Source: Narcine bancroftii
Taxonomy: Eukaryota
DNA length: 64,000 nt
Reading direction: 5' to 3'
NCBI RefSeq assembly: GCF_036971445.1
Contig: NC_091475.1
Location: 33,790,001-33,854,000, forward strand
Part shown: piece after piece, positions 7,491 to 54,149 of the stretch
How the letters are laid out: each line of letters opens with the position of its first letter
Numbering within the stretch: position 1 is the stretch's first letter
Position numbers and translations under genes: made by a program
Notes under the pieces: model-generated
What the model was told of the DNA's origin: nothing
Database searches by the model: none
What the model saw: the letters and a program-made list of their open reading frames with translations, nothing else

Positions 7491-8929
7491 CATCCTTTCT
7501 TTGTGGCAATCAAACTCTAAACCTTTAGTTCAGCATCAATGTAACATACTATATTTTTCCTAGTACTAACTGAATATTTATTATCTTTCTTTGTATTAAT
7601 TATCTCTTTTCAATATAATGTACACTATTGCAATGTTTTAATATAAAGCACCTGTTCAGCTGCAGGAAGTAAGAATTTTGGTGCATGTGTACATTGCATA
7701 ATATTCGTTACAATAAATTCATTATCATTATGAGTCCAAAGATTAGGACCAATCCAAACTTAATACTACTCTTCCCTGATATTCCAACCAATCTCATCAT
7801 TTACCCATAGTCGCAATTACAAGTGAATCTTACTGCCCACTTTCTATCTATGGGCCTGTATGGATAATCAAACCCTCCCAAATGCCCAGTGTCACCCCAG
7901 GCTAATCCCACTGTACACATGAATCCTGATGGTATCCCACCATTCCCTCTCATTCCAAAGCCCAATATCAACATGAAAATATACTCACAATCACACTCTC
8001 CTTCCAGTCTGGCATCAATTTAAATTTCCACTCTGCTCTTGCACCCGAGTGGACCTGGATTACTTGGAGCCTAATCCCACTTTCTCTGTTTCCCTGCCTC
8101 TGGGAACACCCCTCTTGCACCCATCCAATTTTCCCTCAAAAACTTCAGTGAGTCCACCCCACGTGCCAGCTTGTAATGTAAGAACATGAGAAACATGAGC
8201 AGGAGTCGGCCATCTGGCCTGTTGAACCTGCTCCGCCATTCAATAAGATCATGGCTTATCTGGCCATGGACTCAACTCCACTTCCTTCCTATTGCACATA
8301 AGCCTTAAAAATCTGCCTGTCTTAAGTACATTCTACTCCTTGGGTGGAAAATTCCACATATTCACTATTCTCTGGGAGAAGCAGTTCCTCCTCATCTGTC
8401 TTAAATCTACTCCCCTCAATCTTATGTCCCTTAGTTCTTGTCTTACCTGCCAGCTTCCCTGTTTCAGCCTTATTTATTCCTTTCATAATTTTATTTAAAT
8501 AAATTAGTTAAATTTGTGAGTTTTTTTTTCCTCCCATCCTCTCACAGTGACAACTTTGAACATTGAATCCTCACTGCTGACCATTTGAAGAGCGAGTCAT
8601 CTTTCTCCCTCTTGCCGTATGAATTGCAACGATTTAAAAATACCAATCAATTTCACCTCAGCCTCTCAGCTTCTGCAGAAATAGCCTTTGTTATTCCAAC
8701 CGCTTCCCAAACGACACTTCCCATTCCACCATTGCCTTGCAAGTGGCATTCTTTTAGGAACAGGCCCTTCATCCTATGTGTCTGTGCTGAACATGATGTC
8801 CAAGTCAAACTAAACCTCTGCTACCTGCATCTGATAAATATTCCTCCATCCCCTTCATATTAATGTGTCTACCTAGAAACCTCTTAAATGCTCCAAATGT
8901 ATCTGCTTCAACTACTCATGGAAAGACAA

Positions 8930-11989: not shown

Positions 11990-13220
11990 GAGGGAAATGA
12001 CCAGGTCTTGCCAGGTCTGCACAGAGTGCAAGCCGCACTTCTACCACCCCACAAAGGTGCACCTGATTAAGTCATCCAGGCCCTTTGAACACCTCAGTGT
12101 CGATTTTAAGGGACCTCTCCCCTTCCACAAAAGGGAGCATTTTCTTCCTCTCTATCATTGATGAGTACTCCCGCTTCCCGTTCGCCATCCCATGTCCAGT
12201 CACATCCACTTCATCAGTCATAAAGGCCCTAGGTTCGATTTTCGCCTTTTTCGGGTATCCCAGCTATATACATAGCAACCAGGACTCATCCTTTAGGAGT
12301 GAAGAGCTACGTCAGTACCTGCTAGCAAGAGGCATCGCATCCAGCAGGACTACTAGCTACAAACCCCGGGGGAACAGGCAGATTGAAAAGGAGAACACCA
12401 TGGTCTGAAAGGCTGTCAAACTGGCCCTCAAGTCAAAAGGCCTTTCAGACTCACACTACCAGGAAGTTCTTCCTCTGGCCCTCCATTCCATCCGGTCGCT
12501 ACTATGTAAGCAACCAAAACTATCCCTCACGAGCTCCTATTCAATTTCGAGAGAAAGTTGGCATTGGGAACTACACTCCCAACCTGGCTCACCACTCCTG
12601 GTCCGGTCCTTCTCAGGAAGCAGGTGAGGAGAAGCAAGATTGACGCCCTGTGGAAAGGGAGAAACTGCTCCACACCAATCCCTCATATGCCTATGTGGAG
12701 TACCTGGATGGCAGGGAGGACACCGTCTCCATCAGGGACCTGGCATCCACTGGAATAGAGGGTCTGTTGCCTCAAGTGCCCTATGAGCTGTGGAGCTCAT
12801 TCTCACCACTCCCAGTCAGGGCCTCAGGGAATCTGGTTCAGGAGGAAAATGCGTCCCCTCCACTGAGGAGCTGGAGACCTCCCCCCCCACCACTCCTCCC
12901 TCATAAGGGGACCAGAAGACCCAAGGAGTCCAAGGCCCTCCCAAGCTTAGGTGCTCCACCAGGATCTCCACAACCCCAGACTGCTTAAAGTTGTAAAAAA
13001 CTGTATATTTTTCAATTTTTTTTTTCTGAATCATTGTTCTTTGTCTTCATCCACAGACCCTAAATTCTGCAGGAAGGGGTGAATGCAGTGAACTGAGATT
13101 CACTGGTGGCATGTGGTACTGAGCCATTTTGAAGACCACTGTAAGTCCCTACCCTCTGTAATAAGCTAATAAAAGCATATGTTCTCCTTCCTGTCATGAG
13201 AGCTTATTCATGCTACAACA
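11990..13220 (+). mobile_element. Degenerate Gypsy-type LTR retrotransposon 3' end (integrase, PPT, short 3' LTR)
   Basis: CQVCTECK zinc-finger end, PFEHLSVDFKGPLP, IIDEYSRFPFAIP, GN.Q.E; frameshifts and stops; purine tract AGGAAGGGGTGAA then TG...ACAACA LTR at ~13084-13220 with AATAAA. Confidence 0.85.
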
Positions 13221-17520: not shown

Positions 17521-19636
17521 TTCTTATAATCATTTCTGCAACTAGCCCTGGCAGGATACAAGCTCCCATACTGTCACTGCAGGCACTTAATTCGACCCAA
17601 TCAAAAAACAACTTTTCACAATAATGTAGCAAATGACAGTCCTTGCCGATAGAAAATGAACTGCACTTTAATTTAAATTTAAAAATACAGCTCGGTAACA
17701 GGCCCTTCTGGCCCATGAGCCCATGCCGCCCAAATACACCCATGTGGTGCATTAACGTACCAATCCTGTACATCTATGGAACATCAAAGCAACCAGAGTA
17801 TCTGGAGGAAACCCACGAAGACACAAGAACAAATTCCTTTCAGGTGGAGTGGATTTGAACATGTGTTGCTGGTGTTGTGATAGCACTGCACTAACTGCTA
17901 TGCTAACCATGTGGCCGTAACTTGCTTCCATTGTCCGCTAACCCCTGCTGTTCCTTCCAGCTACTGGTTCAAATGTTGCCCCAGACAGCATCGTGTCCAC
18001 GAGCTCTACCTCCTGAAGTGAAAAGAACACCGCTACTTTCGAAGAACATGAGGAGATTTGACATGTCATCGAATACTCTTATCAGACTGCTACAGATGCA
18101 CTGTGGAAATGCACTAACTGGTTGCATCACAGCCTAGTTTAGGAATTAGTGTCCCCAGGAATGCAGAAGGCGGCAGAAGGTAGCAAACATAGCCAGATTC
18201 ATCACAGACTCTGATCTCCCATCTACTGTTGACATCAATGAATGTCCCCATCACCTTGCTCACAATCTCATCTCACTGCTACTTTCAGGCAGAAGGTACA
18301 AATACCTGAAAACTAGCATCTTTAGGTCCAAGAGCAATTTGGTTTCCAATTTCTCATTAGGGTAGCACAAGAACCTCTCCATACAACCCTAGTCCTAACC
18401 TTACACAATTCCAGAGCAACCAAAAGATCTGTACTATTTAAACATCGCTTCTTTCCAGCAGTGACTGCAACTGTGAATATTTATCCATCCTTTTATATTT
18501 ATTGTTTTTATTTCTGTATTGGCACATTGTGATAATTTATACTGTTGAAGTTGGTTATTCTTGGCTATCTGCAACAAGTAAGAATTTTGCTGCATCTGTA
18601 GATTGTACATAACAAAAAAGTTTTGTATCGCTCTGCCACATCCATTGAGGACACACAGTAAAGCCTAATCCTCTCTCTCCAGTCTCCTTGCTCTCACCGA
18701 CCATGCTTATTGTCACAGGTATAAAGGTACAGCAAGAATGTTCATTTTGTGTGCAATCCAACTGGTCAACCCACAGTACAGCAGTAAAATGACAGTAGAA
18801 TGCAGAATTAAGAGAGATCAGTTACAACAGAGCAATGGCAACATAACTAGGGTGAGGTCCATTCAGAAGTCTGATGACAGCAGGAAAGAAGATCTGTACA
18901 ACAACTTTCTCATCATTTGCTCTTCAGGTTCCAGGCACTGTGCAACAACAGTTGACAGTCCACAAACCATTCTGCCCATTGCTCTGGTGCCCCCACCTCA
19001 CTTGAGGTTGAACTGCACACCAGCAATATCCAGGGGGGATTGAAGCTCAAGGCCTTCACAGCCAAGGAATCACAAGGGGGTTCAAGAGGAGTGTGTGCAG
19101 CCCTCCTACCCAGCAAGACCATATCCCAGGTCTTGGGGGAGGTGGATACTTCATATGATTCACACCAATCCCATGAGATAGAGACGACGCAAGTGGGGAG
19201 CATTAATCCAGGTAACATGGAGCACTGTTAATGGTGAGCTGGCTCAGCAGGCAGAATTCACCGGCCACAGGGTCATGGTGGAGAGGTGAAATGCAGAGGG
19301 TTGAACTTGAGGAGGAAGCCAAAGAGGGATGGTGGGGAAAGGGAGGGAAGAGGAATGGGGAGGAGGTGAGGGAGGAAAGGGGGGGGGGGGAGAAAGAGAG
19401 GAAAATAGGAGATAGATGAGGAAGCGAGCACAGAGGGAAGAAGGGGAGGGAGAATGAGAGGTTGGGAGGAAGATGAGGGGAAGAAAGGGAAAGAGAGCAC
19501 ATGACAAGGGAGGGGAAGGGAGGATGGGAAGAGGCATGGAGGATAGAGTCTGAGGCGGGGGAAGTCGAAGGGAGCAGTGATGGGCAGGGGAGAGGACCCA
19601 TGAGGGATTCCTGAGTTTGATGCACTCTGAGCTCAC

Positions 19637-20170
19637 CCACAGGAGGGCAAGTGTAGGATCCTGGCTAAAGGCGGCATCCGAGGAAACCACCCTCCTCCAC
19701 CCCCCCCCCCCCCCCCCCGAGCCCCTGTACCGGGCCGCCGGTGACAGCCCGCCGGGGTAGGAAGCTCCCAGTCCGGGGAGAGGGAACGGCCGGACCTGGC
19801 CGCCCACCGTGCCGGGGCACCTCCTGCCACGCTTGTACTCACGCTGCCTGCAGCCCCCTCACACCGGCACCGAGTGGCCCCAGACCGCCATCCCCGCCGC
19901 CGCCGCCGCTCGCGTCTCCCTCCGGCCACGTAGCGCAGGGGAGGCGGGGAGCAGGGGGCGCGGAGCGCGCACACGCGGGCCGAAGCGCGCGGCCGGATCG
20001 GCGGGGCAGTGTTCACCCCGAACTCCGGGTGTGCATCCCAACACACACACTCGGAGCTCTGGATATATAACTCCACACATCCAGGACTCCGTGGGTCCTC
20101 CCCGACACACAGCCCCAACTCCAGGTAAGTCGCCAGCAAACAGTCCGAACTCCTGGTCGGCAACCCAACA
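19637..20170 (-). promoter_or_regulatory. CpG island with probable non-coding first exon and promoter of the PHLDB gene
   Basis: Very GC- and CpG-rich non-repeat segment with GCC/CGG runs. A minus-strand donor TGG|gtgagc at 19637/19636 points toward the 4989 acceptor. TSS not determinable. Confidence 0.6.
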
Positions 20171-20499
20171 CACACTGGTCAACGCAAATACACCCCAACA
20201 CACACCCGAGATCGGGTGGATACTCACACCCATTCCAAACTCTGGCTGCACAACCCCCAATTCACACTCCAAACTTAAGATGTACACCCCAACACCCTTC
20301 CATATACCCGGTGAGCACATCCCATCACCAAGTGCTCATGCAAACCAACACCCAGCACACCACGTATACATACCCACACACCCCCTTCTCACTGGGCGTG
20401 CAGCCCTGTCATAGCATGTGCACCTCAGCATCCCTTAAACCACCATCACCATCACCAGCCCCCTCCATCACCAAGGGTACACTGACCTCCTCCATCACT

Positions 20500-30432: not shown

Positions 30433-30580
30433 TCAGTTTTGTCCAAGCAGGTACTGGTAATTCAGCTTGATCACAGTTGGAGCAAAGTCCATAAGCTCCA
30501 CAAAGTCAGAGGTGATGATGTTGACACCATTTACACCTGGCTTTTGACACTTCACCCAGTTCATTATTACAGGAAGATTT
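30433..30580 (-). CDS. PLCXD2: PLCXD2 exon 4, last coding exon (R-NLPVIMNWVKCQKPGVNGVNIITSDFVELMDFAPTVIKLNYQYLLGQN*)
   Basis: ctttcag acceptor, phase 2 matching exon 3, conserved PLCXD C-terminal motif NIITSDFV, TGA at 30435-30433. Confidence 0.92.
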
Positions 30581-30989
30581 CTGAAAGAACAAAATGAGCA
30601 TTTAAAAAATTGTCAACATTTTAAAAATCTTTATGTGAATATGCACAACCTTTCCCCCAAATCTATGTGCCGTAATCATAGCATTCACAACGACACAATC
30701 GAGGCTATTACCTTTTGCCACTATTGCAAACTGCCACTCATTGCACTAGATTCACATTGAGTCATACAGAACAGGCCTTTCTGCCCAATTTGTCCACACT
30801 GTCCAAGTTAGAATTCTGGGTTTCACTGCATTTGGTCCATATCCTTCATATCCATATATTTGACCAAATGTCTTTTGAACATTGTAATCATATCTGCTTC
30901 ATCTGGAAGCTCATTCCAGATATGACCACACTCTGAAAGTCACTCCTCAAGTCCTTCTTAAATCTCTTCCCTCTCACCATAAACCCTTT

Positions 30990-33960: not shown

Positions 33961-36216
33961 CACAGAATGTGCTTCTCATCTCAGGAAAACAAAGTCTTGG
34001 TGTTTGGAAGGTCTGACTGAGGCATTCGGCCAAGGACATTGGCAGCCTTCTCAAGGGAACATCCGGCATCAACCATTGTGCCCTTCTCCTGCAGTGCCTG
34101 AAACATGTCCCATCCTGACCACTGCCCCGTCGACTTATGGGTAAAGGAGTTTGTCTGAAAGAACTTTTCCACAAAAGACAAGTAGCAAGGCAAATGTCCA
34201 AAAGACTGAGCTGTCTGATCTTGACTACTGCCAATCATTGCCAAGGTTTGACACAAGAATTTCCTCCCCCACAAAATACATAAACTTCAATAATAAAATA
34301 TGAAATTATACAATTCCAGAAATGATCATTCACTGTAGCAAACATAACTTTACACCTGCGTAGAAAACATCAATTCACCAATTTTTCAATCACCAGTCTG
34401 TCTCCAAATATCAGTGTCAAAATTGTTATCCAGGTAGGACTGCTTCTGACTCTGGTCTCCATTCCCCCCCCCCCCCCCCCCACCACCAATCCCCACCCCC
34501 TTCTGTGGACAGGAAGGCCTCATGGCCCCCTTGTGGTACCACTGGTGAAAACATTTCAGAAGAGTTTGGCTCCTTCCCTTCGTTTTCATCTCATTTTATG
34601 AATGCCTTATGGTCCACCTTGTGGATACAGTGAGAACTGACAGTCAAAGGGACATACAGGAAAACAGGAAGATTAAATGGCTCAAAACAGCAAGTCGCTC
34701 AACAAAGCACTTCTGTTTCTGATATTAGCATTATTTATGCAGAATTTACTTGACCACAGTCTTCAATTTTCGCAGTGTGGAATCTATGGCAGTGGCCAAT
34801 TTAGGGGTAAAAAACAGGATTCTGTTGACACCGTGGTTTAGTGAAAAAACACACAAATGCTGTAGAAACTCAGCAGGTCAAGCAGTGCCTTTATGTAGCA
34901 AAGGTAAAGATACATCACCAACGTTTCAGGCTTGAGCCCTTCATTAAGGTGTTTTCACCTTTTGATTCAGGTGTCCAGCTGTTTCTCAAAGTTCCCACCA
35001 ACACATTCACAGCCAATGGATGTTGTGTGGCCTGCCCAGTTTCTCCAGCACCTTGGTGTATTGCTGTTGGAACTTCCCATGATGCTGCTCAACCTGCTGA
35101 GTTTCTCCTGCTGATTGTTTGTTGCCCCAGATCCCAGCATCTGCATTCTTCCATGCACTCTCATTTATGACTTTAGTCCAGTTTTATTTCCACCTTTTGT
35201 GGTCTTCAAACATGACTGTTCAAGAGACACAATTTCTCAGCATAGGCCATTTCATTCATGCTGACCAAGGTGCCTTCCTGAGCTACTCCCATTTGCCTAC
35301 ATTTGGATCTAATCCCTGTAAAACTTTCCAATCCAAGAACCTGTCCAGATATTTTTTTTAAATTTTAAAACGTTTTAATTGCCCCCACCTCAACCACTTC
35401 CTATGGCAATATGTTTCATATTCCCAGCACTTTCTCTATGACAAACCTGGTCTTCAGATTTCCTTTAAGTTTTCCCTTTTCACCTTAAATGCAGCCCTCT
35501 AGTTCTAGCCTCCCTTACCTTGGAAGGAGGTCTATCTTCTCTATAGCCCTCTACATGGTCACTCCAGGGAGAAAAGTCCTAGCTATTCCTTGTAACTCAC
35601 ACTCTCCAGTTCCCTCAGTACAGCTACCAGAAATGCACACAATGCTCCAGGTGCAATTGTAACGTGACGTCCCTGCACCTGTACAGTGCCATGACAAGTC
35701 ACTCCACCAGTGTTGCCTCTTTCAATGAGTTGTGCCCCTGCCCCCTTAACTCCCTCTGTCCTACAATAAGAGAAAAAGCATCTGATGAGGGAAGGGTACC
35801 AGCTGTTCCTGAACCTGTTGAGTCTTGTGGCACCTACGCCTCCTCCCTGATGGCAGCAGTGAGAATGGAGTGTGCTGGGTGGTGTTGGTCTTTGATGATT
35901 GCTGCTGCTCTCTAGGCTGTGTCCACTACCTTTTGGAGCATTTTACGCTCAAGGGTATTGGTGTTCGCCCAGACGAGACCAGTGAGTCCATCATTGTGTG
36001 GCAAGAGAGTTAGTGGAAAAAGTTCTGAGGGACAAGATTGATCTGCACCTGAAGAGGGAGATATTCTGTGGGGCAAACAAAGGGAAGAATTTTAATGCAT
36101 CTGTGTATGTGACCACAAATGGGCTGGAGGGGCTATTTCTGTGCTGCAAAATATTCTATATAATAATAATAATAAAACAATTAAGGTGAGCGATGATAAG
36201 GAGAATCAAAGCCAAC

Positions 36217-36458: not shown

Positions 36459-39299
36459 CTGTATAAGAAAAGCAGGGAGTTACCAAAACAGGACATAGTG
36501 CAGAGACACGGCGCTGTTCCACAGGATCCTACCGCCTGGTACTGAAGCCAATGGCTCTGTACAGGCTTCAACCAGTCTGTTAAAAGAATTATTTTTAAAA
36601 TTCTGCAACCATGACAGTCAGTGGCCAAGATAGCAACACCTAAGTTGAGCAGTGTACCACAAGGGGTTGCAGACTCTGGGGGGAGCAGCAGACTGGCATA
36701 TGGCACCAGAGAGTAGAAATACAACCTTACAGGGAAGGTGACACATGGCAGTGGACCAGCGAGGGCCTCAGCGGCTGAAGGATTCACACAGGCTGCAGGC
36801 GACTTGTGGTCGAAGGACACAACCTGTGGACTGCTGGAGTCTGTCTCATGGGAACCAGGTATTGGAACTGAGATTCAAGAGGCACTGAGGGCAAGAATGG
36901 CTCCTGAAGGGCCTCAGATACTGAAGGCTTCCTGATCATATCAGAGGTCTGGATCTGGAGCTCGGATTGTCCGGCTGCAGAGGCTGCGGGAGCACTGGAG
37001 GAAAATCCATGGACACTCAGTGACTCGAAGGAATCTTTTTTTGCTTCTTTTTCTCTTATTGTTAGATGCGCCGGGCAATGCAAATGGCAACTCTTGCCTT
37101 ATGACAGACAAGAGTTGAAGCACATCATAGATATTACATTTTATCTATTATTATGTGGCAATAAAAGGAACCTCGAGACATTGCCTCTTCCATTGGGAGC
37201 GTTGCTCACCTCTAATCATGCTGTTATAACTGAGGATTTCAGATAGTCAGGGTTGTAATGTATTAGTTTTTTTTATTTCAAAGCAATGAACTTAATTTGA
37301 AATGCAGAACAGAATATTTGTGATGTCAGCTGTAATGTTTAGAATTCAGCCACTCACAAAAAGTAAAGGCCATTAACAAACAGCAGGCCAGTTGATACAT
37401 TACAGAGAGATCGGTTTCCTCCAAATTTTCACTGCTTCTCAGTCAGGCATTGAGTGTAGGAGCAGGGATGTCATATTATAATGATATGGGATGTTGGTGA
37501 GACTGCACTTGGAGTAACTGTGTCACTTAGCTATATAGGAAAGATATCATTAAGTTAAAAGTCGTACAGAAGAAATTCAGCAGGACGTTACAAGGACTGA
37601 TGGGCTTGAGTAACGTGGAGAGCCTGGGATTTTTCTTTCTGGAGTGTATGTGGCTGAGATGGGGGGGGGGGCTTACAGAATCATGAGGAGAATTGATAGT
37701 CCAAATTATCTTTTTTCCCAGGGTTGGGGACTCTAAAACATGAGGGTATAAATTTAAGATGAAAGGGGAAAGATTTCAAAGGAACCAAGAGGCATTTTAC
37801 TCACACAGTGTGTGGTGGGTATGTGGAACGAGCTGCCAGAGGAAATAGTAGAGGTGAGGTCATTTAGAAGACAATTATATGGGTATGTGGATAGGAAAGA
37901 TTTGGAGGGGTATGGGCCAAATGCAGACAAATGGGAGTAGCTTGGTCAGCAGGGACAAGTTGGGCTGCAAGGCCCGTTTCTGTGATGCAGAATTCGATAA
38001 CTTATCAGTTTCACTTCTTTTCCTGTTTGCAGTTGTAATCTTTTCGGCCACATGAATGACAAACGATTGGTTCCTTTTTAAACTATCTTGTGCTCAGTTT
38101 TCTCTCTGATTATCAATGTCATTCTTATCTTTACATTTCAAAAGCATGCCTTCACTTCCAGAAAACCCTGCTACTGCCCACACTGCAAGCTGCTTCTGTT
38201 TAATGCTGACTAAATATCTCCAGTTCACTATGCTTATTTTGAAATAGGGAATTTATTCTTGAAAGAAATGTATATACGTTATTAAATATATATTTCTTTA
38301 AATGCGTGACATTGCTTATGTGTTGTAATACCCCTTCAACTCTGACAATTGACTGTCACTAATATATTGTGTATATTTAAATTCAATACTGCAATATTGG
38401 GCATAATCAAATCCTTCCAAAACTACAAGAAATATTAGAGCCAGTGTCACCACAGGCCCTTCACCCCAGTGACAGTCAGAAAACCTTTCTCACCATACAA
38501 AGTATTTTATGACTAATAAACTTGAACTTAAATTATGGCAAGAGCGATGAAGCAGCATTTTTGTTAAAAGGTGAGGAGTAAGTTCTGATATCTGTGAGGA
38601 TTCAGCGAGAATTTCAAAAGTAAATGGTACATTAGCAGAGTTCTGGAAGGTTGAGCAGATGGCACAATCCCCTTTGGGGTTGAGAAGAATGACAAGGGTT
38701 CCTCTTAAAATATTCAACCTTCTTTGAGATTTAAAGGGAAATTTCTGGGGTTCCAGTCACACAACAAGGAAATGGAAGCTGAGCAGTGAAATGAGGAGTC
38801 TTTCAAGTACTCAGAGTTATGAACCATTTGAATGTTCTACTCCCAAGGCCTGGGGGCTCAGTCATTGAGAATATTCTGCAGGTTTCTGGTCACCAAACTA
38901 GAAACGGGGATGAGAATAGCCTACTCTGCCACAATTCTGCCTCCATCTACCTACATCCCATTATGTTGTTGCTCCATTACCACCAAGCTTTGCAGCGTTA
39001 TAAGGTAAAGGGGCAGCAAGGTTTCCGCAATGCTTCTCCAGTGCCAGCAATCCAGGTTCAAATCTGCCACTGTAAAGACTTTATATGTTCTCCCCATGCC
39101 CATGTGGGTTTTCTCCAAGACCGCCAGTTTTCTCCCACATTCCAAAGACGTACGAGGATAGTTAGTTAATTGGTCACATTGGTGTATTTGGGCAGCATGG
39201 GCTCATGGGCCGGGAGGGTCTTGTTAATCTCTAAATTAAATATGCCAGTGATTGTCAGGTTTAAAAGAATCAAATTGTGCAAATGTTGATCAGACCGAC

Positions 39300-39763
39300 C
39301 TGGTACTTGTGTTCCCATAAATACTGTAGTGTTATTTCCTCAGTTAGGTTGGTTTCGCAGAGCCTGGATCTAAATATCCTTTGAAACATTTGGATGAGGT
39401 ATTGATGGTTTGAATCTTCCATTGCATAATAGTGATTGAAATCCAGAAAGATCACTTCCTTGCTGTATGATTTCAAAAAATTGTTAATTTCTATCAGTCC
39501 ATCGTAAACTCTACTACCAAACAACCCATGGATGAAATAAGGCTCATCTCCTTCTCCCGGTTTACTGGAGACTCGAAGGTCAAAATAGCGTATGCCAACT
39601 TCCAGCTGCTCTCTGAACGTTAACCTTTGTGTCACAGACCATTTCTTTATCAACATCTTTGTTAGAGAACTGGAAAGTGCAGCTAGTTGCCTGACCATGA
39701 TGGGTTGATCACATCCAACTGGGGACTTCTCATCGATCAAAAAGCTGAAGGAGTTATGAGATC
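39300..39763 (-). CDS. PLCXD2: PLCXD2 exon 2, PI-PLC X-domain core (GSHNSF...KKWSVTQRLTFREQLEVGIRYFDLRVSSKPG...FIHGLFG...FLDFNH...KYQ)
   Basis: 464 nt, ctcag acceptor, gtcggt donor. KKWSVTQ.LTFREQLE.GIRYFDLRVSSKPG is PLCXD2-type rather than PLCXD3-type. Confidence 0.95.
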
Positions 39764-40437
39764 CTGAGAAGGAAACAAGGAAAATGTGCACAGTTTGTTC
39801 ATTCTTCGAACACGACACATACCCGCATCTTAAATTTTGTTAACATGTGTGGACGAGCATCAAAGCTTTCTTGTCACATTGAGTGAAAAAAAAACCTCAG
39901 CACATTGGCAAAGGGGAAGGTTTAGCAAGAACCTTGCAGAAAGTTGCACAACAGAGTCCTGCTTAGTCAGAGTAATAGAGGATATTGAGAACCAGATAAT
40001 TTTGTAGCAAGAAAACAGGCTCCTCTGTCCAACTTGCCCATATCAACTAAGATGTTTAAGTGAGCTAGTCCCATTTGGCGCCATTCAGTTAATATCCCGT
40101 TAAACCTTTTCTAGCCATGTCTGTCTCAAAGTCTTTTAAATATTATAATACCCACCTCCACTATTTCCTCTCGCAGCTCGTTTAACATACCTATTACATT
40201 CTGTATGAAAAAAGTCTCTTTTAAATCATTCCCCTCTCACTTTAAGATCTATGCTCCCTAGTTTTAGACTCCTTTACCCTGGGGAAAAGAAGATGACTAA
40301 TTACTTTGAAACTTAGAGCCAAACAACATGGAAACAGGCCCTTCAGGGCAACTCGTCCATGCCAAATAAGTTGGCATTCTGGGCGAGTCTCATTTGCTTG
40401 GATTGGGTTTGTATCTTTTTAAAGTTTATTCTTCTAA

Positions 40438-43129: not shown

Positions 43130-45385
43130 GTGACTCATGAAACCACGATCTCATGCACTATCTCTGACCTCACTTTCAGTTATCTCCCTCGCATAGCCTC
43201 CAACCTCAGCACTTCCCAGTTCAGACTGATTGTTTCCGCATGCTCCTGCCCCACTGAATTGGAATCCGCTTACCTTGATTCCATTTTGTCCCCCGTGGTC
43301 CAGTCTCTCCCCAGCTACATCAGAGATATTTCACATGGCCTCCATCACTTCAACAACTTCCAGTTCCCTGAATGTGACAGCCTCATTTTTACCTTGGCCA
43401 TCCAATCACTCTACACTTCCATTCCCCCTTTGTTTCTTTCTTGACAATTGACTCAACCAGTCCCCCTCCACCATCACCCTCAACCACCTGACAAAATTTG
43501 TCATCACTCAATAAGTTCTCCTTTGACTCATCCCACGTTCATCCCGCATGGGCCCCAGCTAAACCTGCCTTTTTGTTGGCTCTGTGAAGCAATCCATACT
43601 ACAAGCCGACAAAGGGAAGGCCCCCTCAAACTTTTCCTCTGCTACATCAATGACTACTTGTACTGCCTTATGCATCCATGATGAACTCACCAACATTATC
43701 CACTTTCCTGCCAACTTCTACCCTGACCTCATATTCATTTGATCTATCTCTAGCAACACTGTCTCCTTTCTCTTTCTCTCCACCTCCATCTCTAGAGACA
43801 AACTCATGATAGACATTTTCTACAAATCCACCAACTCCTACAGCTACACCTCTTCACACACTCTCCCCTGTAAAGATTCCATTCCTTTCCCTCAATTCCT
43901 CCATCTCCATCACATCTGCTCCCTGGATGAGATCTTCCTTGCCAGATCATTTGAGATGTCCTCCTTCTTCAATCAATGTGGCTTTCCCTCTACCACCATC
44001 AACTCAGCACTCACCAGCACATTCTCTATTATCTGTACATCTGCCCTGGTCTCCTCTATCTCCACACAAAAAGGACAGGATTCCTCTTGTCCTCACCTAC
44101 CACATCACCAGCTTCTGCATCGAACATATTATCCTCTGCTATTTCCGCCACCTACTATATAATCCCATCACCAGACACATCTTCCCTGCTCCTCTCCTCC
44201 TTCTGCAGGGACCACTCTCTCCATAACTCCTCATCCACTCCTCTCTTTCCACCAATCAGCCCCTTGGCACCTACCCTCCAGCTGCAGGAAATGCCACATT
44301 TGCACCCACACCTCCTCCCTCACCTCCATTTGGGGCCCCAAACAGTCCTTCCCAGTGAAGCAACATTTCACTTGTGAATCTGCAGGGATCATCTACTGCA
44401 TCCAGTGCTCCCGTTGTGGTCTCCTCTACATCGGAGCGTCTGGACATAGACTGAGAGATCACTTTGTTGAGCACCTCAGTTCTGACCATCGCTATAGCAG
44501 GAATCTCCCACTGGCTGCTGTTAGGTCTGCTTTGTTCATGAATGAGTGAGACAAACACCAGGCTGAGTCGAAATCAGGGTTCTTTGTTCTTTATTACCGG
44601 ATTGTAACACTTGCGACTAAACATGTTAGTCGGAGAATGCATTCTGCCGTTATCAGCAAAATGGTGATTTTTTATACCCTTGGATACATGCTTAGAACAT
44701 CATCATATCATTACTTGTCCAATGACTAAAACTGTTGCTATCCTTTCCCTGCTAGCTTCCTGCCTCTCAATCCATCAATGTCTCTCTTATCTTGTAAGTA
44801 CAAGGATGCATTCACATCTTGTTACAGCCCTGTACAGGGCAGGGTAACTCCTTACACATTCCCATCTCATGATGTTTTACCTTACACTGCCCATTTCAAT
44901 TCTCCAGCCCATTCCCTTGCCGACATGTCAGTGCTTAGTCTTATGGACTGCTAGATTGAGACCACCTGCAAATTGGAGGAACAACACCTCATCTTCTGTC
45001 TATGCACACTCCAACCAGATGGTATTAACATTGACTACTCCAGTTTCCGTTAGCCCCCCCCCAACCAATACCTTTTCTCTAGCTGTCTCACTCTCACCCT
45101 TTTTCCTTCTGTCTCCTTTCTCCCAGCTGTGCTTCCATAGAGCCCCAAACAACACTCCCTTTCCCTCAGTCAATCTCATCCTTTCGCTCTCCTGTATCCC
45201 ATTAACACCTTTTGTCTGTTGGTCTGTACTCCCCCTGCCCACTCTTCCCTCCCCATCCTTTTAATTCAGGTGCCTGCCTGCTTTTTACTCATACTTAGGC
45301 CTGGAACTTCAGTTACATATCTTCACCTGCGACAGACGCTGTGAGACCTGTTGAGTTTCTCCAGCATTTCTGTGTTTTTTTTTGT
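43130..45385 (+). mobile_element. Degenerate Penelope-like element (RT, GIY-YIG endonuclease, 3' repeat), interrupted by a solo LTR
   Basis: QSLYTSIP, LCYINDY, DIFYKSTNS...SSH..PCKDSIPF.QFL, FTCES.GIIYCIQCSRCGLLYIG...HF.EHL. Confidence 0.88.
44519..44886 (-). mobile_element. Solo LTR inserted into a Penelope element
   Basis: TGTTAGG...CCTTACA termini, 4-bp TSD CTGC, minus-strand TATAAAAA and AATAAA; Penelope sequence resumes after it. Confidence 0.82.
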
Positions 45386-46262: not shown

Positions 46263-46307
46263 TGTTTGTCTCACTCACATTCCCATCTCATGATGTTTTA
46301 CCTTACA
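46263..46307. mobile_element. 45-bp rearranged remnant of the 44519-44886 LTR family
   Basis: TG...CA ends, TSD AGGC. The last 30 nt are identical to 44857-44886 and the first 15 nt are the reverse complement of 44543-44557. Confidence 0.72.
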
Positions 46308-47246
46308 AGGCATACAACAGTTTCAGGCCCAAGCCCTTCATCAAGGTATGAGCAAAAAAACAAGCAGGCACCTAAATACAAAGGTGGGGATAGTAGGGAA
46401 GAAGGTGCAAAGAGAAGTGCATAGGGCAAAGCCCAAAACACTATAAATGGCCATAGATAAAAGGGCAGGAGGGAAAGGCGGAGAATTGATCAGGGGAGGG
46501 AGTAGCTCTGTGAATACAGAGCTGGAGGAAACAGGAAAGAGAGAAACAGGAGTGGGGGGGAGAAGAGAAGGGCACTAATGGAAACCAGAGAAGTTGATGT
46601 TAATGCCATCAGGTTAGAGGGTACCAAGATGGAATATGAAGTGTTGTTCCTCCAACTTGTGGGAGGTCTCAGTTTGGCAATGCATGAGACCATGGACAGA
46701 CATGTCATGATAGGAAAGGGGGTGAGAAATTGAAATGGGTTGGCACTATTACAGCAGAGTGAAGGTGCTCAACAAAGTGATCTCTCAATCTAAGTTCAGT
46801 CTCTCCAATGTAGAGGAGGTCACATCATCTACTGGATGCAGTAGATGACCCCTGCAGGTCACAAGTGAAGTACTGTTTCACTTGGAAGGACTGTTTGGGG
46901 CCCCGAATAGTGGTGAAGGAGGACATGTAGGGCCCAAGAGCAGCACTTACTGCATTCTCAGGGAAAGGTACCAAGGAGGAGATTGATAGGAAGGAAAGAG
47001 TGGACAAGGGAGATTCAGAGGGAGCTGTCCCTGTAGAAGGCAGGGAGGAGGAGAGGGCAATTTGCGTCTTTTGGCGGGATCACATTGTAGGTGGTGGAAA
47101 TTGAGGAAGAGGATATATTGGATGTGGAGGCTGGGAGGGTAGTAGGTGAGGACAAGGGGAATCCTGTTCTTGTTGCCTCTAGGCACAGAGAGGGCCAGGA
47201 CAGATATACAGGAAATGGAGAATATGCAGGTGAGGGCCGAGTTCAT

Positions 47247-48530
47247 GTCCCCTGATGATTCTCTACTGTCAGTATCCGAAGATGTGACATGCAGACTACT
47301 TTCAAAAGAGTGAATCCAAGGTACTCAGGTCCAGATGAAATACCCAGCTGAGTATTGAAAACCAGTGCTGACCAACTTGCCAATGTATTCATGGATATCT
47401 TGAACCTAAATGTCACTTTGACAGAGCGAAGTAGCTACCTGCTTGAAACAGGCTTTAATTGTATCGGTGCCCAGCAGGAGTGTGATAACCTGACTAAGAG
47501 ACTACCACCCAGTGGCACTCACATCCACAGTGATGAAATGTTTTAAGAGGTTGGTATTGAAGCATATCAGCTCCTGCCCGAGTGGTGACATGGATCCATT
47601 GCAATTCACCTACCTGAGCGACAGGTCTGCAGCAGATGCCATCTCACTGGTTCTACACAAAACAGTGGAATAGCTGGACAGTTAAGATACATTCATCAGG
47701 GTATTCTTTATTGACTGCATTTCAGCATTCAATACAGTCATCCCCTCAAAATTAATGGTGTACAAGCAATAACCTCTCGTCAAAACCAAGGAGCTGATTA
47801 TAGGCTTTAGGAAATGGGTGATAATGGGGACTCAGAGATGGAGAGAGTGAGCAAATTTAAATTCCTGTGAGTCAACATCTTGGAGGGCCTTTCCTGGATC
47901 CATCTTCAATGTTATCATCAAGAAAGCATTTCAATGCCTCTGTGTTCTCAGGAGTTTGCAAAGGTTCAGTATGTCAGAGGAAATCTTGGCAAACTTCTCA
48001 AGATGTGGAGTGGAAAGTATGCTGACCGGCTACATCATGGCCTGGCACAGGGGCATCAATACCGATGAGTGGAAAGCCCTGCAAAATGTCATGGACATAG
48101 CCCCATACATCACAGGATAAACTCTCCCTTTATCGAGAACAGCTACAGGGAACACTGCCATCGGAGAGCAGCAACAATCATCAAAGATCCACACCATCCA
48201 GGACATGCTCTATTCTCACTGCTGCCATCAGGTAAGAGGTAAAGGTGCCACAAGACTTGAACCATCTCGTTCAGGAACAGTTGTTGTCCCTCAACCAGAC
48301 TCCTAAACAATACTCAATTAGAGACTCATTTAAGCACTCTTACTTTTCTCATTACTTACTATTGAAATTTTTTTCTGTATTTTCTCTCTTTGTTTACAAA
48401 TTTCTTCTCAAGTTCAATTTACAGCTACCGACAAGTAGAAATTCTGCATGGCCCACAGGAAAAAGAATCTCAGGCTGTACACAACTCATGTGTAGTCTTG
48501 ATAATAAATTTGAACTTTTTGAACTTTGAG
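47247..48530 (+). mobile_element. Degenerate Rex1/Babar-type LINE fragment
   Basis: LKTSADQLANVFMDILNL, DYHPVALTSTVMKCF.RLV, FKFL, 3' tail aataaa(tttgaac)n. Confidence 0.75.
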
Positions 48531-48940
48531 TTGATGGGGGGGGGGGGGTGGAGGGAAGGAGGACAACTTGGATAATCTCACAAGGAAGACTCCAAGGAAC
48601 AGATGCGCCTGAGATGGAGGAATTGTGAGAATGGATTACAGGGAGAGTGCAGAGACTTTCAGTTGAGGTAACTGTTGGAGTTGGTGGATTTGTAGAAGAT
48701 GATGCCTCTCGATAAGTTTGTCTCCCGAGTTGAAGACAGAAAGATTGAGAAAGGGGAGAGCGTTATGAGAGATGGATCAAGGGAATTTGAGTTTGGGGTG
48801 GAAGTTGGAAACAAAAGATTGCAAGTTCAGCCTGGGTTCATGAACCAGCATTAATGTAATGGAGGAAGAGTTAAGTAGCCTTGCCTGTGTGCCAGCACGT
48901 TTACTACGATCACAGCGTCTGCACACATTCTTGTTCCACT

Positions 48941-49605
48941 TGTGAGAGATGAGTAAAACTAATATGAAAATATGTGTAATGAATAAAGCCAGTATGAATA
49001 GGATAAGGGTAGATAATAGAATGTAGGAAGTAAAGTTAGTCTGAATAAGATAAAGGTCTTCTAGCCTTAGAGAGAGTCAGCAAGTTCTGCATATGTAAGT
49101 AGTAAGCCTTACACTGACAAAAGGCAAAGGAGGAAAAACCCAACCCCAACCAACCAATTTTCCCCTGCAACCGTGTCTGCCTGTCCCGCATCGGACTTGT
49201 CAGCCACAAACGAGCCTGCAGCTGACGTTGACATTTACCCCCTCCATAAATCTTCGTCCATGAAGCCAAGCCAAGAGAGAGACAGAATTAGCAAGTTCTG
49301 CATATAAGAGTTAGTAAGCCCTGAGGGTTGGAAAGGTGTGAATAAGGACAAAGGCAGGTGAATAAGGACAATGACATGATGGGACACAGACAGAATATCC
49401 CCTGGTCCTCCAAGTTCACAGAAACAGCACATAAGCAGACAGGATTGCCTAATGCCAAACTCATCCAGGAGGCAGAAGAAGGTTAGGGGTGGGGGGTGGG
49501 GTGGAGGGTACCTCTACACTGAAATTAACTGTATAAAAGTTGGGTGAGCCCCAGTATGTGTGTGTGTCTCGAGCAATTTCTGTGAAGGTACTTCTGTTTC
49601 TCACA
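48941..49605 (+). mobile_element. Solo LTR
   Basis: TGTGAGA...TCTCACA termini, 4-bp TSD CACT confirmed against the empty site in the right arm, internal ~40-bp direct repeats, TATAAAA near 49532. Confidence 0.82.
49112..49273 (+). mobile_element. Short 3' fragment of the same RTE family nested inside a solo LTR
   Basis: Same 3' end (cactgacaaaaggcaaagg...gaagccaagccaa). Confidence 0.88.
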
Positions 49606-49801
49606 CACTCGTTTTGACCCAGATAATATCAGAACAGGCAAAGGTGGAACTTTATCCCCTACGAAACACAGAGGCCATTAAGAGTCATTCTAGTTTATCA
49701 ATCTGCTTAATTTGGCGTTCAGACATATAGAAGAGATCAACTGTTACAGGTGCATACAATATACCACAATACATATAGTAACAGCACAAAGTATCGAGTA
49801 T

Positions 49802-50616
49802 TCTTTGGCTTGGCTTCGCGGACGAAGATTTATGGAGGGGGTAAAAAGTCCACGTCAGCTGCAGGCTCGTTTGTGGCTGACAAGTCCGATGCGGGACAGG
49901 CAGACACGATTGCAGCGGTTGCAAGGGAAAATTGGTTGGTTGGGGTTTGGTGTTGGGTTTTTCCTCCTTTGCCTTTTGTCAGTGAGGTGGGCTCTGCGGT
50001 CTTCTTCAAAGGAGGTTGCTGCCCGCCAAACTGTGAGGCGCCAAGATGCACGGTTTGAGGCGTTATCAGCCCACTGGCGGTGGTCAATGTGGCAGGCACC
50101 AAGAGATTTCTTTAGGCAGTCCTTGTACCTTTTCTTTGGTGCACCTCTGTCACGGTGGCCAGTGGAGAGCTCGCCAAATAACACGATCTTGGGAAGGCGA
50201 TGGTCCTCCATTCTGGAGACGTGACCCATCCAGCGCAGCTGGATCTTCAGCAGCGTGGACTCGATGCTGTCGACCTCTGCCATCTCAAGTACTTTGACGT
50301 TAGGGGTGTAAGCGCTCCAATGGATGTTGAGGATGGAGCGGAGACAACGCTGGTGGAAGCGTTCTAGGAGCCGTAGGTGGTGCCGGTAGAGGACCCATGA
50401 TTCGGAGCCGAACAGGAGTGTGGGTATGACAACGGCTCTGTATACGCTTATCTTTGTGAGGTTTTTCAGTTGGTTGTTTTTCCAGACTCTTTTGTGTAGT
50501 CTTCCAAAGGCGCTATTTGCCTTGGCGAGTCTGTTGTCTATCTCATTGTCGATCCTTGCATCTGATGAAATGGTGCAGCCGAGATAGGTAAACTGGTTGA
50601 CCGTTTTGTGTATATC
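49802..50616 (-). mobile_element. Young 5'-truncated RTE-clade LINE (3' part of ORF, C-terminal Cys/His motif, short 3' UTR with GCCAA repeats)
   Basis: Stop-free for ~250 aa: FTYLG...RLAKANSAFGRL...VVIPTLLFGSESW...LRWMGHVSRM...CNRCNRVCLSRIGLVSHKRAC. Probable TSD AGTAT (49797-49801 / 50617-50621). Confidence 0.92.
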
Positions 50617-50825
50617 AGTATAATTATGGAGTAAATGTACGCAGAGAGAGGCAAGCACAATGCAAATACAATGGACCTACTGCGGCAATGCACGTAGATG
50701 TACACAGAGCTGGTGCCGAGAACACGAACAGTACAGTGCAGACGCAGAGAAAACAGTACACGGAACAAACCCAGACCACATTCCAATCCCCGAACCGCCG
50801 GAGACCGACTATGACAGAGGCTTAC

Positions 50826-50961
50826 CGGGCACGGCCAGGTTGGCGAGGGGCAGGGCACTGAGCGACTGCGGGAGGCTGCCCATCCATTCTGCGTGCGGTG
50901 GGCCCGGGCCGACTACCGGTTCCCGGAACGTTGCCCAGTCGTTCCCAGCCCTGGTCGTCAT
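50826..50961 (-). CDS. PLCXD2: PLCXD2 exon 1 (MTTRAGNDWATFREPVVGPGPPHAEWMGSLPQSLSALPLANLAVP-G)
   Basis: WM.SLP...LPL.NLA.PG motif of PLCXD N-termini. gtaag donor in phase 1 matching exon 2, in-frame TGA just upstream of the ATG. The four exons total 990 nt = 329 aa + stop. Confidence 0.92.
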
Positions 50962-51700
50962 CACCGGCACTCAGGCAGGCGGGAGAGCCAGACGCTGGGC
51001 GGAGCGGAGCCGCCTGATTCCGGGTTCATCACCGCGGCTCCTGGACAGCCAGTCAAAACGCACCGCGAAGCTGGAGGAACTCTTCAGGTCTCGCAATGCC
51101 CAGAGGAGGCAATTTCGGTGTGTTTTTACTGCAACCTCAGCGTCTGCAGACTTCTCTGTTTCATTTGGACAGCCAGTGACCGATTCCTTCCCCATCACAA
51201 CACACACACATACACACACTCACAGACCAGGGATGCCCAGCACAAATTGCACTTGGTCACATCCCCATCTCAACACACACGTTGCAAGGTCTCTGCACTG
51301 CCCGCCCCGCCCCGCACACACAGGATCACTCCGCAACGGCCCCATACAAAGATCCCGCCACTCACCCAACTATTTAGGGTCACCCCAACCTAGTCAAGGG
51401 GAGGGAATAGAGCTCCCACCCGATGCTGCTGAAGCCCCCCCCCCCCACCCACCCCCCACAGAAAGCATACTCATTACACACTACCCAAGGGAGTCTCTCT
51501 CTCTCAACGCGCCCCTCTCCAGGGAAACCCTGTAGTCCTTCTCCTCACTACTCCCCACAGCCTCATCCCGGTCCCAGGGCTGACAGCGCCAACCCCGCGT
51601 CTCGTTCTCGCGTGTTTTGAGTTCGCGCTTGGTATTGGGGGCCCCCGCGGCCGCCGTACGCACGGCCCGTTCCGGAAAGGGCACGGGATCGGGGGCGAAG
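50962..51700. promoter_or_regulatory. Bidirectional CpG-island promoter and 5' UTRs shared by PLCXD2 (-) and APOO-like (+)
   Basis: Divergent ATGs at 50961 and 51701; CpG-rich from about 50700 to 52100; ETS-like CCGGAA near 51672 and YY1-like AAGATGG over the APOO ATG. Confidence 0.75.
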
Positions 51701-51703
51701 ATG
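51701..51703 (+). CDS. APOO: APOO/MIC26-like exon 1, coding part is only the ATG
   Basis: gcgaagATG|gtgagt: good Kozak context plus consensus donor, phase 0 compatible with exon 2. Confidence 0.65.
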
Positions 51704-52047
51704 GTGAGTGCTCCGGCTGAGAGGAGACTCGCTGCTCCGCGACGGGTCGATGTCGGCGTGGACCGTTGCTGTGGGCGAAGGGAAGGCGGGGAACATGGGG
51801 TGAAGGGCAGGTGTGAGGAGGGCAGGGATCTCACTCACCCCCACGTCGCGGGGGTCTCTCGCAGCCCATGGAGCCTGGTCATTACCGAATCCGATGACAC
51901 TGGCCCCGTCAGGGATCTTGTTTCTGTGCATCCATGAAGCTGGAAGGCGTCGTGCGTGAAGGACAAATCGATTCAATGCAGCGTCGAGTGAAGTACAGGT
52001 ATAAATCTCCTGAAATCAAGTGCCAGCCCCTGTGTATTTCCTTACAG

Positions 52048-52149
52048 GTTGTCGGACCGGCAACATTGCGCACAAGCTTGGCCTTCGTTTCAATTCCTGT
52101 GTTCGCACAGAGTAAGGAAGAAACGAAAAAGGTTCTCAAAGTTGAGCAG
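52048..52149 (+). CDS. APOO: APOO/MIC26-like exon 2 (VVGPATLRTSLAFVSIPVFAQSKEETKKVLKVEQ)
   Basis: ttacag acceptor, gtaatg donor; resembles the N-termini of APOO (SVGPASLSLLTFKVYA...VKVDE) and APOOL. Confidence 0.85.
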
Positions 52150-52787
52150 GTAATGTTTATATTTTGTACCATGGTTACACGATCATGTACTACCATGAGC
52201 ATTCAGTGGTTCTCAACCTTTTTCTTTCCACTCCTAAACCACTTTAAGTAATCCCAATGCCATTGGTGCTCTGATTAGTTTCCCATTTCTTGTTATTTTC
52301 TTCACTTCTCCGTGCTCTTTCTGTATTTTGCGTATTTTCTTCACATATTTCTTGTCATTCTTTTCTACTCAGTTTTCCCTTTCCTTTTGCATTCAAAATC
52401 ATCCTTTCACTCTGTTTCAAACATTCCCAGCTCTTCTCCCACCCTTCCTTGCATCTGTTCTGCTATTTACTAATCTTACCTGGCTTAGAACAACTAATAT
52501 TTTTGCATTCCAGTAAGGAGCTAGTTCCTGGAGCTGAGGTACAGATATCTTTGAAAGGTCTTGATTTGTATGGAATGAACTTACTAACTTATCCAACTGT
52601 GCCAGTAAACTAGATAATTTACAGAACTGATTAAAGGCCTAAGGGGAACATCTCCCACTTCATCTCGGGAACATTCCAAAGTATGTTGCTCTCCTGAGTG
52701 ATTTTTGCAATTAAGACTGGAAATTCGAATGACAAGTTCGAACATTCAGTTGTCAGTGATTCACTACATCCTCAATTTCTAAAGGAG

Positions 52788-53241
52788 GTGCACATCTTCG
52801 TACACTGCCGCAGTAGGTCCATTGTATTTGCATTGTGCTTGCCTCTCTCTGCGTACATTTACTCCATAATTATACTCGATACTTTGTGCTGTTACTATAT
52901 GTACTGTGGTATATTGTATGCACCTGTAACAGTTGATCTCTTCTATATGTCTGAACACCAAATTAAGCAGATTGATAAACTAGAATGACTCAAAGATGGC
53001 CTCTGTGTTTCATAGGGGATAAAGTTCCACCTTTGCTTATAAGTATATCCTGCCTGTTCTGATATCTGGGTCAAAACGAGTGGAACAAGAAAGTGTGCAG
53101 ATGCTGAGATCTTAGAAAACGTGTTGGCACCCAGGCAAGGCTACTTAACTCTTCCTTCACCACATTGATGACTACATTGATGCTGGTTCATGAACACAGG
53201 CTGAACTTGCAATCTTTTGTTTCCAACTTCCACTCCAAACT
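52788..53241. repeat. Right, uninterrupted arm of the inverted duplication, in APOO intron 2
   Basis: Direct read-out against the left arm; near-identical core. Confidence 0.92.
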
Positions 53242-53647
53242 AGAGTATGGAAATGGGCCAGAAGCATCCATTCTGGCCAAGATGTCTACCTAAGCTAGTC
53301 TATTTGCCTGCATTTTTTTTTTTGACCCATATCTGTCTTAACCTTTCTTAACCTGCCCTTAAATATGAAAATTGTACAAATCTTCAACACTTCCTCTAGT
53401 ACCTCATTGCACATTCCCACCTTTCCCCTCTCACCTTGGTTGGTAAGGATAAGTTTGGTCAAAGAGCCTGCTTAAAATTCTATGAATTCAGGTCATTGGG
53501 ATTAATGTTTGTTTAGGAGGGAGGGAGAGAGAGTTTTGTAAGACTTCATGATTTAGGGCTTTGGGGAAAATGAAATAAGTTTCAGCCTGTGTGGGTAACC
53601 ATTAATTGTTCTATACGTACCAGTCTTGTTCTATACTTGTTTTGCAG

Positions 53648-53767
53648 ATGTCACTTTATACAACCCCGGCTAAAACTTTTCGCTTTGAGGAAGCAAAACC
53701 AACTCGACTTGAAGAGAGCATCTCCATGCTGCGAAAGTCAGCAGAACCATACACCACCCAGTATCAG
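53648..53767 (+). CDS. APOO: APOO/MIC26-like exon 3 (MSLYTTPAKTFRFEEAKPTRLEESISMLRKSAEPYTTQYQ)
   Basis: 120 nt, tttgcag/gtaagg; SLY..P...EE...LEESIS.LR...EPYT matches APOO. Confidence 0.92.
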
Positions 53768-54149
53768 GTAAGGCAGACTTCTGGAACTGTGTCCTGTGTC
53801 CTTTGGGGAAAAAAGTGGAATTTATTTGAATTTATCTCAGTGAATGGTTTCGTACAGAGAAGGGAAAAAAGCTAGTAGCTAGCTGGAACATTTGTTTCAA
53901 GATCAACTGGATGCTGGATATTTCTTCTTTGACAATTTCTTTGCAACCACCCTGTTTCAGTCATTGCCACCATTATTCTTTTGATTTATTTTCTATCTGC
54001 CCAGGCCCCAGTTAATAGGGGATGCTCCAATTATTGGTGTCTTCTGAGGCCCAGACACTGGTATGGTTTCCTTGGATCATAAAATAGGGATCGAATTGTG
54101 ATGGACATAGAATTCTTTTTCTCCAGGATTTGGACCATCTCAGCATTAC

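Follow-up and report, generated by a model that had tools for sequence, protein, structure and literature searches.

The window analysed here is a stretch of 64,000 nucleotides (nt) from the electric ray Narcine bancroftii (RefSeq assembly GCF_036971445.1, contig NC_091475.1, positions 33790001-33854000; genome size 3.3 Gb), and coordinates below are window positions 1-64,000. It contains PLCXD2 on the minus strand and APOO (MIC26) on the plus strand, two unrelated genes arranged head to head across a CpG-rich spacer, and the exons in the window are 100% identical to database proteins labelled Narcine bancroftii. The spacer, which a first-pass annotation of the window had put at about 2.1 kb, measures 2,082 nt and holds, as described there, PLCXD2 exon 1, the shared promoter and APOO exons 1 and 2. 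It is bracketed by an inverted duplication, with a left arm in PLCXD2 intron 1 and a right arm in APOO intron 2 (Table 1). We consider it likely that this arrangement arose as a repair-templated local copy, with the donor later split by transposable elements (TEs) and the core probably converted, and that it now represents a neutral scar.

On self-comparison, the APOO intron 2 segment is the reverse complement of PLCXD2 intron 1 sequence, as had been claimed. Both arms had been described as about 450 base pairs (bp) long; this holds for the right arm, while the left arm lies in three pieces separated by insertions of 665 and 815 nt, a splitting that is new relative to the earlier annotation. 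The arm alignment comprises 424 columns with 21 mismatches (95.0% identity) and four insertions or deletions (indels) of 12, 3, 17 and 1 nt. Within it lies a low-divergence core (left 49682-50687, partner 52806-52991) with 2 mismatches in 186 columns, and all four indels fall outside it. The edges are more diverged, as had been noticed by eye, with mismatches in 12 of 151 columns (8%) on the outer side and 4 of 18 (22%) on the inner side. The earlier description of a core of about 190 nt with two mismatches is accurate in size and identity but not in continuity, given that the left core straddles the 815-nt insertion and the longest exact arm-to-arm match at present is 71 nt.

Table 1. Features of the PLCXD2/APOO locus in window coordinates; the last two rows belong to control tiles.
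Feature	Position	Strand or orientation	Remarks
Left arm, outer piece	48790-48940	-	101 nt of old Penelope reverse transcriptase plus unique DNA; 12/151 mismatches, 12-nt indel
Left arm, middle piece	49610-49801	-	unique DNA; 5/189 mismatches; indels of 3, 17 and 1 nt
Left arm, inner piece	50622-50705	-	66 identical columns, then 4 mismatches in the final 18
Right arm, acceptor copy in APOO intron 2	52788-53241	+	454 nt; free of both later insertions
Putative last conversion tract	49682-50687 (partner 52806-52991)		186 columns, 2 mismatches, no indel; split by the RTE element
Old Penelope-like reverse transcriptase fragment	48555-48890	-	about 70-75% gapped identity to best other copies; final 101 nt inside arm
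LTR-like dispersed repeat	48941-49605		665 nt; TG..CA ends; target duplication CACT; 10/495 private sites
RTE-type LINE, young, 5'-truncated	49802-50616	-	815 nt; target duplication AGTAT; 4/810 private sites
Spacer between arms	50706-52787		2,082 nt; CpG-rich shared promoter; ancestral orientation
PLCXD2 exon 1, coding part	50961-50826	-	136 nt, phase 1; RNA contigs stop at 50826
APOO (MIC26) likely start ATG	51701-51703	+	at end of exon 1
APOO exon 2	52048-52149	+	102 nt, phase 0
Putative cryptic 3' splice site in right arm	53014-53016	+	AG at 53014-53015; joint putative
APOO exon 3	53648-53767	+	first codon ATG at 53648; Leu in sawfish orthologue
Two-copy duplication, control tile L117	5311-5411 / 5695-5795	inverted	101 nt, 88%
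Two-copy duplication, control tile L141	5893-6170 / 7873-8150	direct	278 nt, 97%, 1.7 kb apart

The duplicated sequence is confined to this locus. In a genome-wide copy search that passes over very common words, all four candidates for the 338-nt non-Penelope part fell here, so the proposed check, that this part should occur in only two places, came out as predicted; the whole arm also matches Penelope copies elsewhere, from arm position 341 onward. The arm is accordingly what it had been taken for, a Penelope junction (101 nt) joined to apparently unique DNA, and as no third copy of the 338-nt part was found, the reading as a high-copy repeat is ruled out. Readings as a foldback transposon and as a non-coding RNA were also rejected, an Rfam scan giving four matches, none at threshold (best E 0.58) and none on the unique part of the arms. 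The Penelope fragment extends past the left arm but not past the right one, as the first-pass annotation had stated. This one-sided continuation identifies the left copy as the donor and, together with the two-copy status, supports a local duplication instead of two TE insertions.

Three elements touch the left arm. The Penelope-like class is assigned through a family copy elsewhere (L069), which has a reverse transcriptase (RT) followed by helix-turn-helix and GIY-YIG endonuclease domains (Atlas hits of 0.95 with HTH_animal, RVT_1 and GIY-YIG; tblastn to 48602-48845, E 4e-12). The 665-nt insertion has the features of a solo long terminal repeat (LTR), namely TG..CA ends, a short target duplication and a family dispersed in the genome that shares the same ends, another copy of which (L047) also has a 4-nt target duplication. 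Many copies of this family have an RTE 3' tail built into them, here at 49112-49275, which forms a small inverted pair with RTE sequence at 49805-49984. The 815-nt insertion is a long interspersed nuclear element (LINE) that was labelled RTE from its RT C-terminus and zinc finger and its short-repeat tail, the clade name being in part our assumption; it is 99.0-99.4% identical to 13 of the 14 copies retrieved, 98.9% identical to the remaining one, and across all 39 further copies scored the identity is about 99%. A Pfam scan recognised nothing in the Penelope open reading frames (ORFs; three tried) or in the RTE pieces. Each target site is present once in the right arm, which thus preserves the empty site for both insertions and shows that the duplication is older than the LTR-like element and the RTE. 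The ages nest as this order requires, with 7.9% pairwise divergence in the outer arm, 2.0% private divergence in the LTR-like element (range 1.0-3.7), 1.1% pairwise divergence in the core and 0.5% private divergence in the RTE.

The contrast between core and edges had led the first-pass annotation to suggest arm-to-arm gene conversion. Judged from the sequence comparison, past conversion in the core is moderately supported, and exchange has probably ceased. A best-window permutation scan gave p=0.023, or 0.045 after merging clustered mismatches (1,500 permutations), and the other statistics ranged from 0.039 to 0.148. Because the duplication predates the LTR-like element, arms that had never been converted would be expected to differ by about 4% or more, and with an expectation of 4% the observed 2 mismatches in 186 columns have P=0.021. 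The tract length agrees with conversion tracts of 50 to several hundred bp as given in the available text of PMC3924818. CpG counts are similar (3, 4 and 3) and CpG transitions account for 1 of the 12 outer mismatches versus 2 of the 5 in the middle piece, so that CpG mutability is not the cause of the contrast. Six sites could be polarised with other Penelope copies; they place four changes in the right arm and two in the left. Since the RTE lies within the tract and its age is about equal to the divergence of the tract, its insertion probably ended the exchange.

A simpler account, which we hold to be less likely than past conversion but a serious competitor, has the same origin followed by no conversion at all, the core being a chance low within an overall divergence of about 5% and the ends having been copied in an error-prone manner. 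It draws on the longest-run test (p=0.076; merged 0.148), on the sum of squared runs after merging (0.126; unmerged 0.039), on a Fisher comparison of the outer piece with the rest (p=0.059), and on the clock test, where P rises to 0.28 under the younger bound of 2% for the LTR-like element. The scan result, the inability of CpG mutability to explain the contrast and the position of all four indels outside the core speak for conversion instead.

It is also conceivable, though improbable, that selection has kept the core in the two arms, where it would serve as an enhancer within the introns or as a weak 3' splice site through which some of the RNA of each gene is directed to decay. This idea takes its interest from the right arm, in which a 475-nt contig of run X6 aligns from 53014 onward while 28 letters at its start stay unplaced. 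Positions 53014-53015 are an AG that follows a pyrimidine tract; APOO exon 2 also ends in AG, and the preceding letter differs. The 28 unplaced letters plus these 2 make the 30-letter overlap that is expected at a branch in a graph of 31-letter words, which suggests a splice from APOO exon 2 into the right arm, at a putative joint seen in one of the three RNA-like runs. Both arm copies retain the pyrimidine tract and the AG, the mirror acceptor in PLCXD2 being at 49658. The predicted product would add 632 nt and reach a stop after 8 codons. In rough terms, the contig has a depth of 26, compared with 1,049 at the normal joint. Use of the acceptor most likely represents splicing noise. Against selection on the core, the acceptor lies outside the 186 columns, within the indel-bearing part of the arm, the left core is interrupted by the LINE, and Rfam offers no family for the unique sequence. 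A still less probable extension would make the arms a sense-oriented intronic module shared by both genes, in which the weak 3' splice site is used in APOO for a stop-containing RNA and conversion keeps the modules matched; if true, two unrelated genes would be under one common unproductive-splicing control, and the bidirectional promoters of this ray might also be hot spots for repair copies.

The earlier annotation further proposed a potentially invertible cassette, in which recombination between the arms, in germ cells or in tissues, would turn the promoter block around, with both genes being swapped or shut off. The geometry does permit this, as in the F8 int1h repeats (PMC8776779), and events through matches of less than 50 bp have been seen for repeats 5 kb apart (available text of PMC2583991). 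A working cassette is nevertheless very unlikely. Efficient recombination is reported for 134-232 bp in cultured (mitotic) cells and 300-500 bp in human meiosis (PMC2583991), a length of unbroken identity that the arms do not reach; with 71 nt remaining, conversion or inversion is now expected to be rare. Moreover, the spacer is in its ancestral orientation, and 2 of the 80 control tiles described below contain inverted TE pairs of greater length. The exon coordinates agree with the phases given earlier, 1 for PLCXD2 exon 1 and 0 after APOO exon 2. After a flip, each donor would be spliced onto an acceptor of the other phase (1 to 0 and 0 to 1), and both genes would be out of frame. The disruption of both genes that had been foreseen is thus upheld, and a crossover would be a damaging accident, not a switch. 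The in-frame ATG that had been pointed out at the start of APOO exon 3 is present; as the sawfish orthologue has Leu at that codon, it does not qualify as a conserved rescue start.

The RNA data show the normal arrangement, with the APOO joints between exons 2 and 3 and between exons 3 and 4 present in all three RNA-like runs and the PLCXD2 contigs ending at the exon 1 donor and the exon 2 acceptor. No strand-change joint was found among the matches listed (15 of 2,130 joints), although contigs drop rare forms and collapse shared words, so that a flip could hardly show. An RNA hairpin or duplex between the arms is ruled out by geometry, each precursor mRNA carrying one arm and both in the same sense, and a cruciform can be rejected because of the 2-kb loop it would require.

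Known inversions provide useful comparisons. The F8 int1h-1/int1h-2 pair, which causes the intron 1 inversion of haemophilia A, is likewise an intronic inverted repeat bracketing a promoter and first exon, with a disruptive flip; according to the available text (PMC8776779), its copies extend over 1,041 bp with one mismatch and lie 140 kb apart, in contrast to the 2 kb between the ray arms. In the ray, two divergent genes would be affected together, and a flip was not observed. HsInv0241 (first-exon exchange of AQP12A/B) and HsInv0389 (FLNA-EMD) also involve inverted repeats, which surround whole genes or their 5' exons, and the flips are described as harmless, paralogous exons being exchanged or whole genes turned (available text of PMC3961182). 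The ray genes differ in being unrelated and in having phases that clash.

As to origin, an inversion through staggered breaks is expected to leave its segment flanked by inverted duplications, and the arms might be the by-product of a single such inversion of the spacer. We find this most unlikely, as it would require the opposite prior orientation of the spacer. PLCXD2 exon 1 aligns with the N-termini of eight other vertebrate PLCXD2 proteins, and of 34 residues compared from APOO exon 2, 24 are identical in the sawfish N-terminus; each first exon belongs by homology with its present gene, which excludes a single inversion (unless there were two). The flanks of the right-arm junctions show no poly-A tail and no clear target duplication, which makes an origin by retrotransposition unlikely. 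With inversion excluded and retrotransposition unlikely, a copy templated during break repair is favoured, and its size and distance (454 nt at 2,082 nt) are inside the ranges of repair-mediated and human inverted duplications.

The first of these classes (Pace et al. 2009, PMC2671141) comprises, in the available text, duplications of up to 619 bp, 824 of 1,136 of them within 5 kb, and shares with the ray locus the presence of two copies only, a donor less than 5 kb away, a length below 619 bp and the lack of a poly-A tail. It was found in fish and birds, and splice sites were noted to be copied by it. The ray arm is longer than the mean of 162 bp, and its probable membership of the class is proposed from size, distance, copy number and the lack of a poly-A tail. 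A further difference is that the donor here is broken by two TEs and the core seemingly converted; the term 'gene conversion' is absent from the text of that paper as available. The human 'Inverted Dup' variants, which made up 54% of sequenced human 'inversions' (available text of PMC4617611), are also inverted copies of less than 1 kb inserted within 5 kb of their source; they are polymorphic and near-identical, in contrast to the ray copy, which is older and 5% diverged overall.

We infer the following order of events. An old Penelope fragment would already have resided in PLCXD2 intron 1 when a break in APOO intron 2 was mended by copying from the opposite strand close by, reached through strand invasion or template switching, over about 430-450 nt with the Penelope end included. 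The two copies would then have drifted to about 8% divergence, after which the LTR-like element inserted into the donor and severed its outer third. One or more short non-crossover conversions then likely homogenised the core over about 186 nt before the young RTE LINE inserted inside it and left the 71 nt of unbroken identity.

The physical reality of the arms is supported by contigs from short-read DNA runs X1 and X2, which end or start at 52806/52835 and 53204/53226, the borders of the identical stretches, as graphs are expected to behave when two copies exist. A contig of a second sample (X6) spans 53014-53460, the outer junction included, with 0 differences; runs X5-X7, none of which is recorded as RNA, were taken to be RNA-like, and their GT..AG joints agree. 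Even though X1 and X2 possibly derive from the very sample that was assembled, both an artefact of assembly and a double insertion of one repeat can be dismissed given these contigs, the 21 mismatches, four indels and two insertions that separate the arms, and the failure to find a third copy.

To place the duplication in context, 80 control tiles of 10 kb (60 over 10 contigs and 20 flanking the window) were scanned for pairs of at least 80 nt at 85% identity or more. There were seven inverted hits in five tiles, three of which were examined genome-wide; L156 and L158 were left out of the count, being covered by other tiles, and tandem arrays among the 315 direct hits were disregarded. Tiles L082 and L084 contain young inverted TE pairs (287 and 665 nt long, 96-98% identical, within 3 kb), which are longer inversion substrates than the PLCXD2/APOO arms; their reading as local duplications was dropped, distant copies (98-99%) being closer than the local partner. 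Two-copy proximal duplications were present in 2 of the 80 tiles, inverted in L117 and direct in L141. One inverted event in 0.8 Mb corresponds to a 95% range of 0.03-7 per Mb, or roughly a hundred to some twenty thousand genome-wide.

Several observations weigh against the interpretation offered here. The control counts are small, as their 95% range indicates, and at the alignment ends neither junction shows microhomology or filler. DNA runs of relatives (X9 and X11), compared with 52300-54100 at 84% likeness, yielded no empty orthologous site but 24 and 0 records, Penelope pieces and short fragments only, a blank that is uninformative on orthologues and does not speak for their absence. The conversion statistics are borderline, five of the seven p-values being above 0.04, the clock test depends on the bound chosen for the LTR-like element, and in a comparison of two sequences selection on the core is indistinguishable from conversion. 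Taken together, we conclude that the inverted duplication is genuine, local and old, that it belongs to a known kind and that TEs have broken it up, with probably one round of conversion in its past; the repair mechanism itself is inferred.

The window holds further observations on the two genes and their surroundings. Additional PLCXD2 exons lie near 39.5, 36.3 and 30.5 kb (exon 2 at about 39297-39765), and database isoform X1 has an alternative last exon at 35915-36076 (minus strand) that replaces 30436-30582. Exon 2 (39297-39776, minus strand) encodes 'HNS' in place of the conserved 'HDS', with Asp in eight other aligned full-length proteins; this Asp, which we take to be the residue after the catalytic His of PI-PLC X domains, is where the ray PLCXD2 may differ in activity. 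The database model of APOO starts at 51233, 55 residues upstream of the sawfish start. One RNA-like contig (X5) is continuous across 50826-51702 and so connects the exon 1 donors of PLCXD2 and APOO, its strand not being readable from the contig, and the 5' ends of the two genes may overlap. A second GC-rich, promoter-like stretch lies left of PLCXD2 at 19200-20300, with two ORFs that have no Pfam match, and part of the integrase core of a decayed LTR element survives at 12067-12405 (Pfam rve, E 1.4e-11). Two identical 32-nt stretches in direct orientation (44855-44886 and 46276-46307, 1.4 kb apart) adjoin two old, opposed Penelope copies (43997-44476 and 46763-47247, 75%) and possibly represent another small templated copy.

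Literature searches for this gene pair and layout returned no publication on the locus, as judged by titles and the beginnings of abstracts. The finding would gain greater significance if inverted alleles were demonstrated, if the cryptic acceptor proved to be used in a regulated manner, or if such copies turned out to be in excess at shared promoters across the genome. As it stands, the locus provides a dated example of a common process, in which a probable repair-templated copy lies within 4.5 kb of a likely conversion tract and of the TE insertions that probably ended the exchange, and it illustrates how local repair copies can carry a putative splice site into a neighbouring gene.

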